In this document: positions 5,346-63,677 of the stretch, one piece after another | How the letters are laid out: every line of letters starts with the position of its first letter | How positions within the stretch are numbered: position 1 is the first letter of the stretch | Source of the DNA: Bdellovibrio sp. | Lineage (GTDB): Bacteria; Bdellovibrionota; Bdellovibrionia; Bdellovibrionales; Bdellovibrionaceae | Assembly (NCBI GenBank): GCA_036676395.1 | Contig: JAKFCY010000002.1 | Coordinates: 736,001 to 800,000 of the forward strand | Direction: 5' to 3' | Length of the DNA stretch: 64,000 nt | The notes under the pieces: generated by a model | The model's input: only the letters and a program-made list of their open reading frames with translations | Databases searched by the model: none | Told to the model about the DNA's origin: nothing | Program-made: the position numbers and the translations under genes

Positions 5346-5346
5346 C

Positions 5347-5607
5347 ATGAATTTTTTAACTAAAAATAGCCTTAGAATGCCAAATTGGACTGCCATTCTA
5401 TTAGTTACTGCAGCTCTTGTGGGTGAAGCACAATATATGAATGCGTTTATTATGTCCTTTTTTATGATGATCTTGCACTTTCAAGAGGATTTGAGTGCTG
5501 CACTGCCAAAATGGATTTTATGGTTTAACCGAGTATTATTTGTAACTTTGTCAGTATTTTTTGTTTTTGTAGATCAAACAAAGAAAATTTTAGAATTTAT
5601 TTTTTAA
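5347..5607 (+). CDS. Small multi-TM membrane protein (putative immunity protein 1)
   Basis: GGAG RBS at 5337-40, ATG 5347; about 3 hydrophobic helices; similar to the next ORF (PNWTAILLVTAA...LPKWIL). Confidence 0.6.
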   Translation: MNFLTKNSLRMPNWTAILLVTAALVGEAQYMNAFIMSFFMMILHFQEDLSAALPKWILWFNRVLFVTLSVFFVFVDQTKKILEFIF

Positions 5608-5648
5608 ATGTGGTTAATCGCGCAATTGTGCCGAATGGTGGAGAATAT

Positions 5649-5948
5649 ATGAATAAACCCAAAAAAGATCTCAAAGAAACGGTAACTGAGTTAAAAGAAC
5701 TTTTTACTTATCAATTTCCATATTGGGCGACAATTCTTTTGATTTTTGCGGCTACCTCTAAAGATATTCCACGTTTAAAATTTGTTTTAATGTTAATAAT
5801 TATTTTGGTAGGTCTTGAACAAAAATTTATGATAGGTCGCATACCTAAATGGATCATTTTAACACTACAAATCTTGCTTACGCCTCTTATGCTTCTGTTT
5901 TTTTTCGAAAATGAATTTCGAGCAATAGGTCAGTATTTTGGTTGGTAG
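5649..5948 (+). CDS. Small multi-TM membrane protein (putative immunity protein 2, paralog of the previous ORF)
   Basis: GGAG RBS at 5640-43, ATG 5649; PYWATILLIFAA...IPKWII. Confidence 0.6.
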   Translation: MNKPKKDLKETVTELKELFTYQFPYWATILLIFAATSKDIPRLKFVLMLIIILVGLEQKFMIGRIPKWIILTLQILLTPLMLLFFFENEFRAIGQYFGW

Positions 5949-5953
5949 CAGAT

Positions 5954-56611: not shown

Positions 56612-56854
56612 TTTTTGCGCTAAAAATCTGCAGCTAAATTTGTAGGCTCTGTCTTAGGATAAGAAATGTGCAGCCTCATATATATAGACATGCAGCGTTG
56701 CGGCAAGGCCGACCAAAACTCTCAAAAGCAATTGTTTCATCGTTGACTCACTATCCCGACCAAAGGACAGTTATAGAGTAGTTATAAGCTCTATATGGTG
56801 TCTTATGGAATTCATAAGACTATAAACCATTTTCTTCGCAAAAGGAGTTTTGCT

Positions 56855-59800
56855 TTGAGAATTAAAAAACTAGAACTAATTGGTTTTAAATCATTTAAAG
56901 ATCGCACAGTCATTCAATTCGATGCTGGTATTACTGGTATCGTAGGCCCGAATGGTTGCGGTAAATCTAATATCGTCGATGCTTTAATGTGGGTAATGGG
57001 CGATCAATCGGCCAAAGACTTACGTGCATCGCAAATGACAGATGTTATCTTTGCCGGCGCAGAAAACTATGCTCCGCATGGTATGTGCGAAGTTTCACTT
57101 ACATTAGAAAATGATGGCGGACCATTCCCAGCTAAGTATTTAAAACATTCTGAAATCATGGTGACTCGTCGTTTACACAGAAATGGTGAAGGCGAATACT
57201 TTATCAATAAAGAAGCAGCTCGTTTAAAAGACGTGCAAGAAATCTTTATGGATACTGGTGCCGGATCAAAAGGTTTCTCGATTATCGCTCAGGGTATGAT
57301 CGGTAAGATCATTACATCTAAGCCAGAAGATCGCCGCATGTTAATCGAAGAAGCCGCGGGTATTACGAAGTTCAAGGCTCGTAAAAAAGAATCGCAACGT
57401 AAATTACAATCTACAGATCAAAACTTAGTGCGTTTACAAGACATCATCGGCGAATTAAAACGCCAGATCGATTCTTTACAGCGTCAGGCGCAGCGTGCTG
57501 AACGTTACCGTAATATCAAAAATCAAATTGAAGATCTTGAATTATGGTTATCATCAGCTCAATACATAGAGCTTGCGCGTGCTGCTAACGAAGCACAAAA
57601 AATCTTTGATGAAGCGCAATCTTTAGAAGTTGGTTCTGAAGCTGACCTTGCAGGAATGCAGGCGCAATTAGAAACTTTAAAACTTTCTGTGTTAGAACAA
57701 GAAAAAGCAGTTGAAGATCGCCAACAAGAATTCTTCAATCACCAGGGTTCTGTACAAAAGAAAGAATTAGAAATTCAGGAATTACGCTTTACGCTTGAAC
57801 AAGCTAAACGCAATGAGCAAATGACGGGTTCGATCTTAAACGAACAACAAGCCCGTTATGATTTATTATCTCGTGATCAAACGACACTTCAGGCTCAAGC
57901 TGATGAATTAAAAGAAGAATCAGAATATTTAGCTGAAGAATCAATTACAAAAGCTCAGGCTTTCAGTGAAAACCAAAAACGTTTTGCTGAAATCGACGAA
58001 GATTTAACTGTTAAACGCCGTGAACAATTTGCCGTAGGCCAATCTGAATCAGCGTTAGATGCAAAATTAAATTCTTTCACAGGTCAGCGTTCTGAAGTTG
58101 CTGATCGTGTAGCTAATGAAGAATTAAAACTTTCTGAATTGCGTGAAACACACCACGGGTTTGAAACTCGTCGTCGTAAAATCACAAATGAATTAGACAG
58201 CCAACGCCAACTTCAATTAGACCTTTCAAATGATGCTGAATCTTTTGAAGCGAATAAAAAGATTTTGACTGAATCTGTTCAACGTAAACAAATTGAAGTT
58301 CAGGAATTTAAAGATAATTTAAATGAAACGGCTTCACGCCTTTACGGTTTAGAAAATTTAGCGCAAAACTTCGAAGGTTTCGAAGAGGGCGTTAAGCAAG
58401 TTATGCTTTGGTCAAAAGCCAGAACTGAACAATCATTAAATGCTGATGGCACGGTGAATGAAACATTCCACCCAGTATCTGAAGTGATCGAAGTGCCAAG
58501 CGAATTCGAAATCGCTATGGAAGCAGCTCTTGGTTCTAAATTACAGATGCTTTTATCTAATAAAAAAGAAACAGCTTTAGAGGCTGTTGATTATTTAAAA
58601 GAACAAAACACAGGCCGTTCTTCTTTCTTTGCGGCTCAGGGCGAAAAAGCTCACATGCCTGCAGGAAACCCTGAAGCTGAAGCCGGTGTTCTTGGTTTAT
58701 TAAATAAAGTCGTTCGTTCTGACGCTCAATTCTCTGACTCGGTAGAAAATATTCTATCTGGTGTGGCGATTGTTGATTCAATCCGTACGGCATTATCATT
58801 ACGTCCGAACTACTCAGGTTGGACTTTTGTAACTCCGGATGGTGATACGTTATCAGCTGATGGCGTAATGACTGGCGGATCAAAAGATTCTGCTGAATCA
58901 GGCGTATTAAAACGTCGTCGTGAAATTAAAGAATTAACTGATAAGAAAAACGAATGGTCTGGTAAGACGGCTTTAGCAACGGCTGCTTTAAAGAAAACTG
59001 AAGAGCAATTAGCTAACGTATTAAATGACTTTGAAGGCGCGCAAAAACGCCGTATCGAACAAGAAATCAAAGTTACAGAACTTCGTAAAGACTTAGAACG
59101 TGCTGATAATGAATTACAACAAGCGGGCAACGCGGTTGAAAGACAGGATAAAGAAGTTCGTCGTTTAACTGAAAACTTAGCTATGCTTGATGAAAAGATT
59201 TCTGAAATGTCAGAAAATCTAGTGAACTTACGCACGAATAAAGCCGAGTTAGAAACATCTATCGAATCATTAACAAATGAATTTGATTCAATGAAAGATG
59301 GTTTCGATGCGCAGCAAGCTGAAGTGACTGATTTACAAATCAGATCAGCTTCTAAATCTCAGGAATACCAAGGTTTAATTCGCCAATTAGAAATGGTGAC
59401 TAGACAGGTTAATGAATTATCGCACCAATTAAACCGTATGTCTGAAGAGGCCGAAGGTTACAATTCGCAAATGACTGAAGGCTCTTATGCTTTAGAACAG
59501 GCGAAAATCGATTTCGAAAGAATGGTTGCTGATATTGAAGTTAAACGTTTAGATTTGGCTCAATTCAAAAATCAATTCGAAATTGAAACTGCTGATATTC
59601 GTGAATTAGAAAATAAAACGATCACAATGCAACGTGAACGTAACGAACGTTTACAGCGTATGTCTGAGTCTCAATTGAAATTAGAATCAGCTAAAATGAA
59701 AGAACAAAACTTGATCGAGCAAACTCGTGAAAAATATATGTTAAATCTTCCAGACGTTGTTGAAAAATACATCGGTCGCGAAGGTGATCCCGTTGCGGCT

Positions 59801-60442
59801 GTTGAAGAATTAAAAGAATTACGCGAAAAATTAGCTAAAATTGGCGAAGTAAATCTTTCAGCTATTGCTGAGTACTCTGAAACGCAAGAGCGTTACGAAT
59901 TTTTAACTAAACAGCACGCTGATCTTACAGAGGCGAAAGAGCATTTACGCAAAGTGATCGAGCGTATTAACAAAATCTGTTCTAAACGTTTCAAAGAAAC
60001 TTTTGATCTTGTTAATGAGCGTTTCCAAAAAGTATTTCCAGTTCTTTTCGGCGGTGGTGAGGCGATGTTACAAATCGTCGAAAACGAAGAAAAAGGCGAA
60101 ATGGGTATCGAGATCATCGCTAAACCTCCAGGTAAGAAAATGCAGAACGTAACCCTAATGTCAGGGGGCGAAAAAGCCCTTACGGCCGTAGCGTTAGTGT
60201 TCTCGATCTTCTTAGTTAAACCGTCTCCGTACTGTTTACTGGATGAGGTTGATGCTCCGCTTGATGATGCCAATGTTTTCCGTTTCAACGATCTAGTCAG
60301 AGAAATGGCAAAACGTTCGCAAATTATCGTGGTGACTCATAATAAGCACACGATGGAAGTCGCTCAGAAGCTTTACGGTGTAACAATGCAAGAACGCGGT
60401 GTTTCAACGATGGTATCTGTGAGCCTTGCTGATATTAAGTAG
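56855..60442 (+). CDS. smc: Chromosome segregation protein SMC
   Basis: GFKSF, Walker A GPNGCGKSN, coiled coils and hinge, MSGGEK, LDEVDAPLD, VTH; AAGGAG RBS then TTG 56855. Confidence 0.98.
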   Translation: MRIKKLELIGFKSFKDRTVIQFDAGITGIVGPNGCGKSNIVDALMWVMGDQSAKDLRASQMTDVIFAGAENYAPHGMCEVSLTLENDGGPFPAKYLKHSEIMVTRRLHRNGEGEYFINKEAARLKDVQEIFMDTGAGSKGFSIIAQGMIGKIITSKPEDRRMLIEEAAGITKFKARKKESQRKLQSTDQNLVRLQDIIGELKRQIDSLQRQAQRAERYRNIKNQIEDLELWLSSAQYIELARAANEAQKIFDEAQSLEVGSEADLAGMQAQLETLKLSVLEQEKAVEDRQQEFFNHQGSVQKKELEIQELRFTLEQAKRNEQMTGSILNEQQARYDLLSRDQTTLQAQADELKEESEYLAEESITKAQAFSENQKRFAEIDEDLTVKRREQFAVGQSESALDAKLNSFTGQRSEVADRVANEELKLSELRETHHGFETRRRKITNELDSQRQLQLDLSNDAESFEANKKILTESVQRKQIEVQEFKDNLNETASRLYGLENLAQNFEGFEEGVKQVMLWSKARTEQSLNADGTVNETFHPVSEVIEVPSEFEIAMEAALGSKLQMLLSNKKETALEAVDYLKEQNTGRSSFFAAQGEKAHMPAGNPEAEAGVLGLLNKVVRSDAQFSDSVENILSGVAIVDSIRTALSLRPNYSGWTFVTPDGDTLSADGVMTGGSKDSAESGVLKRRREIKELTDKKNEWSGKTALATAALKKTEEQLANVLNDFEGAQKRRIEQEIKVTELRKDLERADNELQQAGNAVERQDKEVRRLTENLAMLDEKISEMSENLVNLRTNKAELETSIESLTNEFDSMKDGFDAQQAEVTDLQIRSASKSQEYQGLIRQLEMVTRQVNELSHQLNRMSEEAEGYNSQMTEGSYALEQAKIDFERMVADIEVKRLDLAQFKNQFEIETADIRELENKTITMQRERNERLQRMSESQLKLESAKMKEQNLIEQTREKYMLNLPDVVEKYIGREGDPVAAVEELKELREKLAKIGEVNLSAIAEYSETQERYEFLTKQHADLTEAKEHLRKVIERINKICSKRFKETFDLVNERFQKVFPVLFGGGEAMLQIVENEEKGEMGIEIIAKPPGKKMQNVTLMSGGEKALTAVALVFSIFLVKPSPYCLLDEVDAPLDDANVFRFNDLVREMAKRSQIIVVTHNKHTMEVAQKLYGVTMQERGVSTMVSVSLADIK

Positions 60443-60558: not shown

Positions 60559-60954
60559 ATGTTTAAAAATCCAGTTCCCGTCGCTGTTTGCTTATTGCCG
60601 GTAGATAAAAAATTAATAGGTATTCGTAGAGGTATCGAGCCGCGAAAAGGATTTATTGCTTTACCTGGTGGGTATGTGAACGCTGGTGAAACTTGGCAAG
60701 AAGCTTGTTGTAGAGAGCTATACGAAGAAACTGGGATCAAATGCGATCCTGTGCAGATTAATTTATTTTCAGTTGAAAGTGCTATCGATTCAAATCGAAT
60801 TTTAATATTTGGATTGGCTCCTGAAATTACTAAAGAACAATTAAATATCGAGTTTAAAAACGAAGAAACATTAGAAATAAGCTTCATTGAAAAAGATCAA
60901 GAGCTTGCATTTCCGCTTCATACCACCGCAGCACGCAATTTTTTTGAATTATAA
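60559..60954 (+). CDS. NUDIX hydrolase
   Basis: NPVPVA, LPGGYVNAGETWQEACCRELYEETG (Nudix box), LAFPLH. Confidence 0.92.
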   Translation: MFKNPVPVAVCLLPVDKKLIGIRRGIEPRKGFIALPGGYVNAGETWQEACCRELYEETGIKCDPVQINLFSVESAIDSNRILIFGLAPEITKEQLNIEFKNEETLEISFIEKDQELAFPLHTTAARNFFEL

Positions 60955-60983
60955 CACTAATTTAAATTACAAACCATGATCAT

Positions 60984-61019
60984 AAAAGCTCTGACTAAAA
61001 ATCAGAGCTTTTATTTTTT
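60984..61019 (+). terminator. Intrinsic (possibly bidirectional) terminator after the NUDIX gene
   Basis: AAAAGCTCTGA-CTAAAAA-TCAGAGCTTTT followed by ATTTTTT. Confidence 0.8.
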
Positions 61020-61232
61020 AACGCATTAAGATCTGAAACATGACCTGGCACCGATGAGGTTTTGGGCATCAAAAAACTAGACTATGAGTTTTGCAAGGAG
61101 GGGAGGTTTTCTAAGTAAAGAGAATGGAGTTGTTGTTTATGAGAAAATATTTTTTAATTCCTTTTATTTTAGGAACGTAGTATTTGCGTGGTTACTATTC
61201 TCATAGGTGAAACAACTTATTTTGCAGCTCTC

Positions 61233-61260
61233 GCCTATATCAAAAAAGTATAGGCTTTTT
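61233..61260 (+). terminator. Terminator-like hairpin within the non-coding region
   Basis: GCCTATA-N9-TATAGGC followed by TTTTT. Confidence 0.5.
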
Positions 61261-61561
61261 GTCTCTCATCTAAAAAATATTCTAGCGCTAGCTTTTTAAA
61301 ATATACTTCGTAGCGGTGAAGACATGCGTCAGAGAAATAATTCTTGCCAGGGTTTTTAAGGCTTTAATATTTGCTCTGTATTCACGGAATATCTTTTTTG
61401 CGGTCCGCCTCGCGAATGAAAAACAAATTCCGCATAGCTGTGATAGCGAATCTACATCGGGATTGTTGTTGTAGTGGTATCTTTCAAGCTTGATGCAATA
61501 AAAGTCGAAAAAGTTGATTTTAAAAATCGTGGTACTGTCTTTTTGAAAAGGAAAGTACTTT

Positions 61562-62413
61562 ATGAATTTATCACAATTAGCTAATTCTGAATTGTTACTG
61601 CGGCTTGAAAAATTGTCTCGTACTGAAAGAAAAATCACGCATGTGATTCTTTGGCATATCTTAGAAGTTGAAGCTAGAAAGCTTTATGCTGATCGCGGCT
61701 TTGCTAGTTGCTTTGAATATTTGACTAAGGGATTAGGTTATTCAGAGGGCAGTGCTTATCGAAGGCTGCAATCCGCACGATTACTTAAAAAGATGCCCGA
61801 AAAACTAAGCGCTAGTATTGCCGTGAAGATAGAAAATGGTTCACTTAATTTGTCGCAATTAACACAAGTTCAAAAATGTTTAAAAAATGAAGAGAAGTCG
61901 AAAGCACAAAAGTGCTCTACCGTGCCAGTTCGTACGGAACACATCCTTGAACTTATCGAAAATCAAAATACTTTCGAAACGCAAAAAATTTTAGCCAAGC
62001 AATTTAATCAACCTGTGCAAACAGCAGAAAAAATAATTTCACAGCGAAATGATTCGGTTAAAGTAGAGATTATTCTAACCAAAGAACAGATGAAAAATCT
62101 TGAGCAGGCTCAAAGTTTATTAAGCCATGTTTGCCCGGATGGGAGTATCGCAGCCTTGGTTGATTATTTAGTGACTCAACATATTTCAAAGTCGAAGAAA
62201 AGAAATAACATTAAAGCCTGCTGTGAATATATCGACCCTGTGACTGCTAGAAAATGTGATTCTGATTATCAACTGCAAAAAGATCATATTATTCCTAAAG
62301 CTAAGGGTGGAGGTAATGATACGCGCAATTTGCGTACATTGTGCCGTACCCATAATTTATCTGAAGCCCGTCGATGGGGATTGTTGAACAGGGCGGACCT
62401 GGTTGAAAAATAG
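61562..62413 (+). CDS. HNH endonuclease with long helical (DUF222-like) N-terminal region, Bdellovibrio-type
   Basis: N-terminus LEKLSRTERKITHVILWHILEVEARKLY...SCFEYLTKGLGYSEGSAYRRLQSAR; C-terminal CEYIDP..C...LQKDHIIPKAKGGGNDTRNLRTLCRTHN (Zn-binding HNH). Confidence 0.9.
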   Translation: MNLSQLANSELLLRLEKLSRTERKITHVILWHILEVEARKLYADRGFASCFEYLTKGLGYSEGSAYRRLQSARLLKKMPEKLSASIAVKIENGSLNLSQLTQVQKCLKNEEKSKAQKCSTVPVRTEHILELIENQNTFETQKILAKQFNQPVQTAEKIISQRNDSVKVEIILTKEQMKNLEQAQSLLSHVCPDGSIAALVDYLVTQHISKSKKRNNIKACCEYIDPVTARKCDSDYQLQKDHIIPKAKGGGNDTRNLRTLCRTHNLSEARRWGLLNRADLVEK

Positions 62414-62504
62414 CCAAATTGACGCAGGTCTTCATCGCATCGAAAGTAAATAGGACAAGAATCCGTTTTGAACTCGCCCGAATTAGTGTACTAATGTTTT
62501 TCTT

Positions 62505-63677
62505 ATGTCAGAGTCGCATTCTTATCAAATGAATCTTTTGTTAATAGTCATCGCAGTTCTTGCGCTGGCTATTTTTATTCCAGTCATACTTTCAATCTTA
62601 AAAAAGAAAAAGAAATATACCCCTCCGCCATTAGATAACGCGCAGGCGGATCTTGAGCCGTTACATAAATCAGAGCCAACTCCACAGACTGAACTTCCTG
62701 AACTTTTAGCGGATACTCAGCCAAAAGTTGAAGAAGATCTATCGTCAACAGCCACTATCGGCAAAGCGATGGAAAAAACTAAAGATAGTTTTTTCGGTCG
62801 CATTAAAAATGCCTTCACAAATACCGATAAGAAAAAAGTTTTAGAAGAAATCGAAGAAGTTCTATATACGAGCGATTTAGGCCCAAAAACTGTTCAAAAA
62901 CTTTTAGATAAAGTTTCATCAAGTGATATGTCAGATATTTCGAAAGTGAAAGAATCTTTGTCATTGCAGATGCAAGAAATCCTTTTAGATATTCATGCTT
63001 CACAAAAAGATTCAAAATTGGTTTCTGATTTAATTCCCAAGCGCAGTGATGGCCCAATGGTGTTAATGGTTGTTGGCGTAAATGGCGCAGGTAAAACTAC
63101 GTCAATCGGTAAAATTACAGCGCAATTAGCTCATCAGGGATTTAAAATTCTGGTGGCAGCAGGTGATACTTTCCGCGCGGCAGCCGGCGGACAATTAAAA
63201 GTTTGGACAGAGCGCGCGCAAAATGCCAATGGCCATGTTGAAATTTTCTGGCCAGATAATGTGACAGATCCGGCGGCAGTGGCGTTCGATGCAGTAAGCA
63301 AGGGTAAAGCTGGTCAGTATGATTTTGTGATCTTAGATACAGCAGGACGTTTACATACTCAGGGTCATTTAATGGACGAGCTTAAAAAAGTTAAACGTGT
63401 AATGGCGAAAGTTATTCCGGATGCGCCTCATGAAACATGGATCGTGCTCGATGCAAATTCGGGACAAAATGCCCTTAATCAAGCGGTTGAATTTAATAAA
63501 GCCCTTGAAGTGACTGGCGTAATTTTAACTAAAATGGATGGCACAGCCAAAGGTGGCGTAGCCCTGGGAGTTGTTGATCAACTAGCAAAACCAATTCGTT
63601 TAGTCGGTCTAGGTGAGAAAATCGGTGATCTAAAAGTCTTTGAACCAAAAGAGTACATTGATTCCATCTTAGGATAA
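62505..63677 (+). CDS. ftsY: SRP receptor FtsY (with N-terminal TM anchor)
   Basis: GVNGAGKTTSIGK, DTFRAAA, DTAGRL, TKMDGTAKGG, GLGE. Confidence 0.98.
   Translation: MSESHSYQMNLLLIVIAVLALAIFIPVILSILKKKKKYTPPPLDNAQADLEPLHKSEPTPQTELPELLADTQPKVEEDLSSTATIGKAMEKTKDSFFGRIKNAFTNTDKKKVLEEIEEVLYTSDLGPKTVQKLLDKVSSSDMSDISKVKESLSLQMQEILLDIHASQKDSKLVSDLIPKRSDGPMVLMVVGVNGAGKTTSIGKITAQLAHQGFKILVAAGDTFRAAAGGQLKVWTERAQNANGHVEIFWPDNVTDPAAVAFDAVSKGKAGQYDFVILDTAGRLHTQGHLMDELKKVKRVMAKVIPDAPHETWIVLDANSGQNALNQAVEFNKALEVTGVILTKMDGTAKGGVALGVVDQLAKPIRLVGLGEKIGDLKVFEPKEYIDSILG

Follow-up and report, generated by a model that had tools for sequence, protein, structure and literature searches.

What is a nuclease gene, preceded by some 600 nt of apparently non-coding DNA, doing between smc and ftsY? 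The question is raised by a 64,000-nt stretch of the genome of a Bdellovibrio sp. (NCBI GenBank assembly GCA_036676395.1, contig JAKFCY010000002.1, positions 736,001 to 800,000), here called the window, in which a predicted 283-aa HNH nuclease is encoded on the + strand at 61562-62413. The gene is an intact open reading frame (ORF), just as an earlier reading made from the letters alone (the sequence-only reading) had said, and Pfam assigns its product to the HNH family (E 3.8e-8; 33.8 bits, the cut-off being 21.4). That reading went on to propose a dispersed unit whose upstream DNA would encode either a conserved structured RNA or a cis-element acting with the nuclease. With a probability of roughly 0.6, we favour the view that the locus belongs to a family of compact, self-contained HNH cassettes that are gained, lost and multiplied in Bdellovibrionota in a homing- or transposon-like manner, and that its upstream ~300 nt are a DNA-level control and end region.

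The first line of evidence is the occupancy of the site in relatives, for which 52 genomes of the genus were searched at the DNA level and the results refined by BLAST. Compared genomes are given G numbers, G000 being the genome that carries the window, and gene-centred HNH loci are given L numbers. In the closest relative, G018, whose smc is 95-97% identical, the matches to smc (56795-60442 in the window) and ftsY (starting at 62505) lie only 2 nt apart, and the 2062-bp segment 60443-62504 is absent from the junction. In G062 and G067 there are ~20-28 nt between the two genes. Besides G000, only G052 has the HNH gene at smc|ftsY, and a remnant is found in G041. The G052 locus has the same gene together with ~345 nt upstream of it, 83% identical from 61216 on. 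G041 has kept the upstream block 61210-61472 (69% identical) and 48 nt 3' of the gene (62407-62454, 94% identical), and has lost the ORF. Its junction lies in a 10-nt direct repeat, GGGATTGTTG, found at 61459-61468 (+) and 62377-62386 of the window, and the remnant may be the product of a deletion of the HNH ORF between the two copies. In a metagenome strain, X6, positions 61127-61209 are swapped for 424 other letters. This replacement, at 61126/61210, was the sole joint found in the contigs of four DNA runs, with no joint across the HNH gene. Since G052 (61216), G041 (61210) and the X6 replacement agree as three independent comparisons, the conserved block is taken to start near 61210.

The second copy in G000 behaves in the same way. 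It encodes a 264-aa paralogue, 52% identical to the window protein, and lies between an SDR gene and tgt, at a site that is occupied in G052 too; G018 has only 44 nt there, and G041, G062, G016 and G067 have ~100 nt, without the insert. G000 and G052 have both sites filled, in G018, G062, G067 and G016 both are empty, and G041 is mixed, with SDR|tgt empty and a remnant at smc|ftsY. This is presence and absence at one site between conserved genes, as is looked for in homing endonuclease genes. The last two SDR codons and the first eight tgt codons differ between filled and empty alleles, which fits arrival of the insert by homologous recombination together with its flanks. An independent filled/empty pair from Bdellovibrio (L102) has an insert of 1.54 kb, reaching from -438 to +213 relative to the ORF, versus 16 nt in the empty allele; neither a duplication nor an inverted repeat was seen at its junction. 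The same insert, from a B. bacteriovorus strain, holds a (GATA)n microsatellite downstream of the HNH gene (L102:2199-2234). Similar (GATA)n runs occur in the Bdellovibrio genomes G076 and G074, in G076 within ~1 kb of an HNH match, and 36-nt 'arrays' near an HNH gene in these two genomes were rejected as arrays, being the microsatellite itself.

The window protein has 470 relatives at E <=1e-5 in a large protein collection, and those with names are annotated as HNH endonucleases of Bdellovibrio, Bdellovibrionales or Bdellovibrionota, several coming from one genome. Of 41 related genomes, 14 gave a match, but only 2 of the 24 further members of the genus did so; in several genomes from other families of the order there were 14-23 matches apiece, a figure not to be read as copy number. 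A scan of species-representative genomes gave 80 loci in named Bdellovibrio and Pseudobdellovibrionaceae genomes. The statement in the sequence-only reading that this HNH type is multi-copy in Bdellovibrio is thus borne out for Bdellovibrio and relatives. Neither a phage collection (50,697 records) nor a plasmid collection contained a match to the HNH protein, and a protein search of metagenome contigs for closer relatives produced 301 pattern matches, none of which was confirmed. When the loci were compared all against all, paralogues within a genome had ~225-430 nt of upstream DNA in common, and in several pairs their similarity stopped within ~25 nt of the stop codon (L046/L048, L052/L054, L031/L045, L069/L074 and L065/L070). 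With both G000 copies facing empty sites in relatives and paralogues sharing DNA from upstream through to the stop codon, the gene together with its upstream ~250-350 nt is a dispersed unit, as had been suggested. The search for empty smc-ftsY sites that the same reading had recommended succeeded in G018, G062 and G067, and the fixed single-copy orthologous position that it had named as a refutation is not what the locus shows, the copies being absent in the closest relative and the family multi-copy.

The ends of the window copy are marked by inverted repeats. The left one (IR-L, TTCGTAGCGGTGAAGACATGCGTCA, 25 nt, 61307-61331, + strand) has the family motif TGCGTCA at its inner end, and the right one (IR-R, 62420-62444, - strand) begins 7 nt after the stop codon and is kept in G041, within the 48 nt mentioned above, and partly in G052. 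Together they are the strongest inverted repeat of the region, with 21 of 25 positions pairing (84% complementary) and a score of 15 versus a maximum of 12.5 in 30 shuffles, and they bracket both promoter-like elements (see below) and the HNH ORF. The window copy therefore has the terminal inverted repeats that are characteristic of insertion sequences. Among 68 independent Bdellovibrio loci a homologous repeat (~CGCGCTACCAAGAAAAGCTGTGTCA) is present upstream in 18 (usually between -267 and -286); 9 loci have it in inverted orientation no more than 200 nt beyond the stop codon, and 8 have it on both sides. The repeat score was reached by 1 of 340 shuffles. At the inner end there is a consistent difference between the left copies (…TGTGTCA) and the right ones (…TGCGTTA). 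Inverted repeat pairs 1.3-1.5 kb apart were found at four cassettes in three of the five Bdellovibrio genomes searched, and no short repeat-only pairs resembling miniature inverted-repeat transposable elements were found in five Bdellovibrio genomes at <=3 mismatches. Long, near-perfect inverted flanks that are unrelated to the family repeat occur at three further loci: L063 (57 nt, -383..-327 and +109..+165), L179 (66 nt, -420..-355 and +39..+104) and L129 (39 nt, -338..-300 and +17..+55). These may be other repeat elements or duplicated terminators.

Between the left repeat and the gene the leader has a regular layout. A distal box, TTGCCA (61344-61349, + strand), is followed by a T-tract and, after a 15-nt spacer, by TAATAT (61365-61370), and the promoter-like pair can also be read as TTGCCA-16-AATATT. 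In 75 independent loci, 34 of 53 occurrences of a TTG[AC]C[AG] box with a T-tract (TTGAC[GA] or TTGCC[AG]) fall at -240..-201. The distal box is present in 37 of the 55 loci of the first set, and the leader consensus has a conserved 'TA' 15 nt 3' of it. The predicted proximal promoter (61500-61538, + strand) consists of A-tracts ~10-11 nt apart and then an extended -10 element, TGGTACTGT (61530-61538). It corresponds to a motif, TTTAAAAnCCrTGnTA, found at -45..-25, just 5' of the ribosome-binding site, in most family members and not enriched across G000 (36 matches versus 32 in the control). A third match in G000, at C2:1014772, precedes an unrelated secreted protein. The spacing of distal box and proximal TGnTA falls within 184-189 nt in 48 of the 66 leaders measured; in 30, the window's among them (61344 to 61530), it is exactly 186 nt. 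The 66 include three loci fetched twice, and 39 leaders are left after de-replication at 85% identity.

These boxes and repeats are the upstream cis-element for which the sequence-only reading had allowed. The GC-richer islands and the hairpin that it named are all present in the sequence, on or beside the conserved elements: the motif TAGCGGTGAAGACATGCG (61311-61328) lies within the left repeat, and the terminator-like hairpin at 61233-61255 and the palindrome CTAGCGCTAG (61282-61291) are contained in the first part (61210-61306, + strand) of the block that G052 and G041 have in common with the window. In a distant subgroup of the family (L161, L163, L165, L167, L169-L172 and L175-L178) a small hairpin, CCGTAGCGG or CCGCTACGG, lies over the ribosome-binding site at ~-35 to -10, for example ACAACCGTAGCGGAGGT, and the left repeat of the window holds CGTAGCGG, which resembles it. 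The leaders L025, L065, L067 and L070 of G035 (~61% G+C) have internal direct repeats of ~40-150 nt at -520 to -270, upstream of the distal box.

Both gene and leader are conserved. Between G000 and its G052 orthologue the HNH gene has a ratio of non-synonymous to synonymous substitution (dN/dS) of 0.10, and by this measure it is under purifying selection. Synonymous sites differ at 37% in the HNH gene, 48% in smc and 55% in ftsY, and the non-coding leader differs by only ~15-17% (~83% identical over its last ~345 nt). Since the leader differs far less than synonymous sites, it must be constrained, and even remote members of the family have its motifs at fixed positions.

The protein itself consists of a helical DUF222-like N-terminus, a ribbon-helix-helix-like segment and a C-terminal Zn-HNH domain, and we assign the family to a divergent branch of the DUF222-HNH ('REP13E12-type') proteins that is multi-copy in Bdellovibrio and relatives. 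The window protein matches DUF222 (PF02720) weakly (E 0.099, 12.4 bits versus a cut-off of 24.4). Pfam DUF222 is matched at E <=0.01 by 13 of 40 aligned family members, at best 4.6e-7, and a precomputed PF02720 match is carried by the G000 paralogue and several homologues. C221, C232, H242 and C261 are invariant among the 40 family sequences and N256 and N265 nearly so, and the window protein has the Zn-binding Cys/His and catalytic His expected of a DUF222-HNH protein. In scans with Pfam, NCBIfam, PHROGs and PADLOC the HNH domain alone was recognised, with no known transposase class. We found no RuvC or PLMP domain: the NCBIfam guided_IscB model gave 22.9 bits versus a cut-off of 175, over profile positions 196-235 only, which are its HNH part. 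Together with the lack of a HEARO match (see below) this agrees with the sequence-only reading, which had seen no RuvC motifs and had called the unit distinct from IscB. The AlphaFold model has a predicted local distance difference test score (pLDDT) of 91 and a predicted template-modelling score (pTM) of 0.78, and holds helical, ribbon-helix-helix-like and HNH modules only. Foldseek against PDB gave no match to this model at E <=0.001, and in a profile search of solved structures HNH domains were the sole matches. In a wide structural search, residues 163-216 resemble the ribbon-helix-helix domains of NikR, TacA, MazE and ParD (Z 4.5-5.5, root-mean-square deviation 1.6-2.6) and residues 20-150 weakly resemble the DNA-binding domains of ParB/KorB (Z 4.3-4.9). 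The model thus weakly suggests that the N-terminal helical domain and the ribbon-helix-helix-like segment are two DNA-binding modules.

We looked for the other possibility raised by the sequence-only reading, a long structured or guide-type RNA encoded upstream, and did not find it. Rfam gave no match in the leader at E <=10, HEARO included, and no family reached its gathering score anywhere in the window. On the + strand the 306 nt before the start codon have a folding z of +0.82, their energy being equalled or bettered by 81 of 100 shuffles (z -1.98 on the - strand). The mean z of 41 family leaders (-230..-30) is -0.03 for the + and -0.11 for the - strand, compared with 0.08 for coding controls. 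RNAalifold returned no consensus pairs on 36 leaders. On seven diverged G033 paralogues, whose leaders have 21-30% G+C, it left the leader body without pairs and predicted only 7, at the ribosome-binding site. The 34 pairs that it predicted on three orthologous sequences, too few to judge by, came with a positive (penalising) covariation term. No variable guide-like segment beside a conserved scaffold, such as the sequence-only reading had advised looking for, was seen in the leaders.

The alignment of upstream regions that was also advised gave no large consensus structure, but it did give one short hairpin. In the window this is TTTGCG-GTCCGCCT-CGCGAA (61397-61416, + strand), centred ~62 nt after the distal box, with stem arms at 61397-61402 and 61411-61416. 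Thirty-eight non-redundant leaders were aligned without gaps, as their fixed length permits, and every stacked helix was compared with a row-permutation null. The top helix, columns 62-67 with 78-83, had a sumZ of 8.96 versus a null mean of 6.36 and maximum of 7.35 (30 permutations). On alignment A8, 57.9% of its cells are paired versus 49.0 +/- 2.7 in shuffles (1/500) and its covariation score is 0.381 versus 0.272 (2/500), and both measures lie above all slid controls. The helix coincides with the stem that had been picked out from the sequence alone, the centre being shifted by one position; in the exact register first named, the paired count is not above shuffles. The hairpin loop is often G[GA]TC[CG]. 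When Watson-Crick pairs alone are counted the helix still ranks first and the signal is equally strong; by minus-strand rules it is slightly weaker, and it therefore does not identify a + strand RNA. Local folding energy at the helix is only 0.6-0.7 kcal/mol below shuffles. Since sequence kinship inflates helix and covariation tests of this kind, we treat the hairpin as probably real and modestly supported.

From this anatomy we infer the following mechanism for the cassette. The HNH protein would bind its own repeats and the hairpin region and so repress its own promoter, it would nick or cut DNA at or near cognate sites, and the cassette would thereby spread or persist much as free-standing homing endonuclease genes or transposon-like elements do. 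Homing-like recombination fits because flanks are replaced and duplications are absent, and the inverted repeats leave a transposon-like mechanism possible. A more far-reaching version, which we regard as a long shot, is that the DUF222-like/ribbon-helix-helix/HNH protein is the mobilising enzyme of a new DNA element. It would then bind the flanking inverted repeats, the HNH domain would cut there or at targets, and the 186-nt leader and the hairpin would be part of the DNA or RNA architecture needed for this reaction or for its control. If true, HNH-driven transposon-like or homing elements would be a catalytic class outside the known transposases.

Several observations weigh against the cassette interpretation. 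A target-site duplication was not seen at seven repeat-flanked copies or at the L102 junction, and the boundaries of the insertions exceed the repeats (the block from 61210 in the window; -438 and +213 at L102). The repeat copy after the stop codon is missing in 59 of the 68 loci and in most of the first set, and in G033 two repeat variants stand in tandem upstream and not at opposite ends, an arrangement that suits binding sites better than transposon ends. The ~40-nt repeats of G033 were also considered as abundant REP-like targets, which was rejected, there being 11 and 15 copies, mostly beside HNH genes. G000 holds just two copies, and their upstream regions are without a BLAST match to each other beyond -55. 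The distal box is a doubtful promoter: it was rejected as one of the sigma-70 type, since a -10-like hexamer at a 16-18-nt spacer is found in 4 of 68 loci versus 10% in the control. A simple promoter model also leaves unexplained the near-invariant 186-nt spacing and the hairpin, which leave room for a functional leader RNA. The structural matches of the protein are weak (Z <6), and are leads rather than proof. Finally, a segment of ~14 residues ('RYIPxxxK…') just N-terminal to the first Zn-binding Cys, conserved in the remaining 38 aligned members, is deleted from the window protein and its G052 orthologue (L033:1845-2666); the Zn-binding and catalytic positions are kept in the window protein too.

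Of the alternatives, the one that survives best, though we consider it unlikely, is a cis-acting regulatory leader. The distal box would then be a real promoter, a ~180-nt 5' untranslated region with the hairpin would act on the HNH mRNA's stability or translation, for example as the protein's own binding site, the repeats would be operators, and the cassette, with no autonomous mobility, would have spread only by ordinary recombination or transfer. The fixed spacing from box to promoter, the fixed place of the hairpin (~+18 to +39 from the predicted start) and a ribbon-helix-helix-like module, which is typical of autoregulators, are all in keeping with such a leader, as are the operator-like tandem repeats of G033. 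So too are the unseen target-site duplications and the replacement of the flanking gene ends at SDR|tgt along with the insert, as in homologous recombination. It does not account for the many matches per genome (up to ~20) in unrelated intergenic regions, where the units end sharply at the stop codon, or for the inverted repeat copy that follows the stop codon; moreover, the AT-rich leaders of G033 lack the hairpin.

It is also conceivable, and in our view quite improbable, that these genes are an ordinary host family of housekeeping or predation nucleases expanded by duplication, with a shared promoter upstream and with loss accounting for absence. Such a family would be under purifying selection, as the HNH gene is, and would have no match in phage or plasmid collections. 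A 2026 paper reports 10 and 13 HNH endonucleases in two Peredibacter strains and treats them under 'rich in proteases and nucleases'. The same paper, however, has six of the Peredibacter copies at common sites and the rest (~half) strain-specific. Further points against a host family are that only 2 of the 24 other genus genomes were matched (in one search), that the closest relative has no copy at either of the two G000 sites, that no signal peptide is visible at the N-terminus of the HNH protein, and that inverted end repeats and unit boundaries are unlike those of a plain duplicated gene. In the literature on DUF222-HNH, REP13E12 and Bdellovibrio HNH endonucleases, covered mostly without full texts, no description of the leader or the repeats was found.

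Least probable, to the point that we would set it aside, is an RNA-associated nuclease in which the upstream DNA would encode a structured scaffold or guide RNA partnering the HNH protein, by analogy with omegaRNA-IscB: it can draw on a superficial likeness to an IscB locus (a small nuclease gene preceded by ~200-400 nt of conserved non-coding sequence, in a unit that ends with the stop codon), on the nearly invariant leader length and on the modestly covarying hairpin, but it is opposed by the Rfam, z-score and RNAalifold results, by a hairpin signal that is nearly the same under minus-strand rules, by leaders without a guide-like segment and by a protein without RuvC, PLMP or other IscB feature.

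The immediate surroundings of the cassette are themselves variable. The gene order is smc, NUDIX, gap, HNH, ftsY, so the placement between smc and ftsY given by the sequence-only reading was right but left out the 131-aa NUDIX gene that follows smc (60559-60954; Pfam E 3.8e-12). The gap that it had noted, ~600 nt without a credible ORF, is indeed 607 nt (60955-61561) without an ORF of >=120 aa, but it shares the rank of largest in the window with a second gap of this kind, 5346-5953 (608 nt). A minus-strand ORF of 116 aa that overlaps the 607-nt gap (61288-61638) is without a Pfam match and cut short in G052, and none of the small ORFs with a Shine-Dalgarno sequence in family leaders recurs among members. 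A stretch of ~220 nt (61015-61232), whose sole ORF is of 40 aa, lies between two terminator-like hairpins (60982-61014 and 61233-61255), and may be a remnant of another cargo gene. The NUDIX gene matches the PADLOC phage-defence-candidate model PDC-S07 (E 2.3e-7). Its slot is variable, G052 having a different small gene there, a 117-aa signal-peptide-like ORF, and G041 one of 146 aa, and NUDIX-like DNA is found at other places in further genomes of the genus.

How does the proposed cassette compare with known systems? The DUF222-HNH ('13E12'/REP13E12) genes of Actinomycetota are multi-copy chromosomal genes that encode a helical DUF222-type N-terminus and a C-terminal Zn-HNH. The Bdellovibrionota family too has a DUF222-like helical N-terminus, a Zn-HNH C-terminus and many chromosomal copies, but the window protein falls below the Pfam DUF222 threshold and the lineage is Bdellovibrionota, not Actinomycetota; the comparison is one of proteins. 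With the free-standing HNH homing genes of phages ('intronless homing') it shares a small HNH gene with its own promoter between conserved genes, presence and absence between close relatives, flank ends replaced with the insert and no target-site duplication. Unlike them, the family is chromosomal, with many copies per genome at unrelated sites, inverted ends and a fixed-length leader, and is without a match in the 50,697 phage records. IscB/omegaRNA (HEARO) units of IS200/IS605 likewise combine an HNH domain with conserved 5' non-coding DNA and end near the stop codon, whereas the window family has no RuvC, no PLMP, no HEARO or Rfam match and no structured leader, and has other N-terminal domains. 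Insertion sequences resemble it in that 25-33-bp inverted repeats, with left and right differing at their inner ends, flank a single gene for a predicted DNA-binding nuclease in multiple copies. They differ in that the window family has no known transposase fold, no target-site duplication and no short repeat-only derivatives in five genomes, and in that the right repeat is missing in most copies.

As an answer to the question first posed, this is a negative of some use, in that the evidence speaks against a new RNA-guided nuclease. Few multi-copy genes of bacteria are as common as the DUF222-HNH genes and still unexplained, and how they spread and what they cut is a standing question. The family described here offers an unusually clean anatomy on which to test it, with inverted ends, two promoter-like elements at a near-invariant distance, a short covarying hairpin and natural filled and empty sites, and since cultivable Bdellovibrio strains carry copies, binding, cleavage and mobility assays are feasible.

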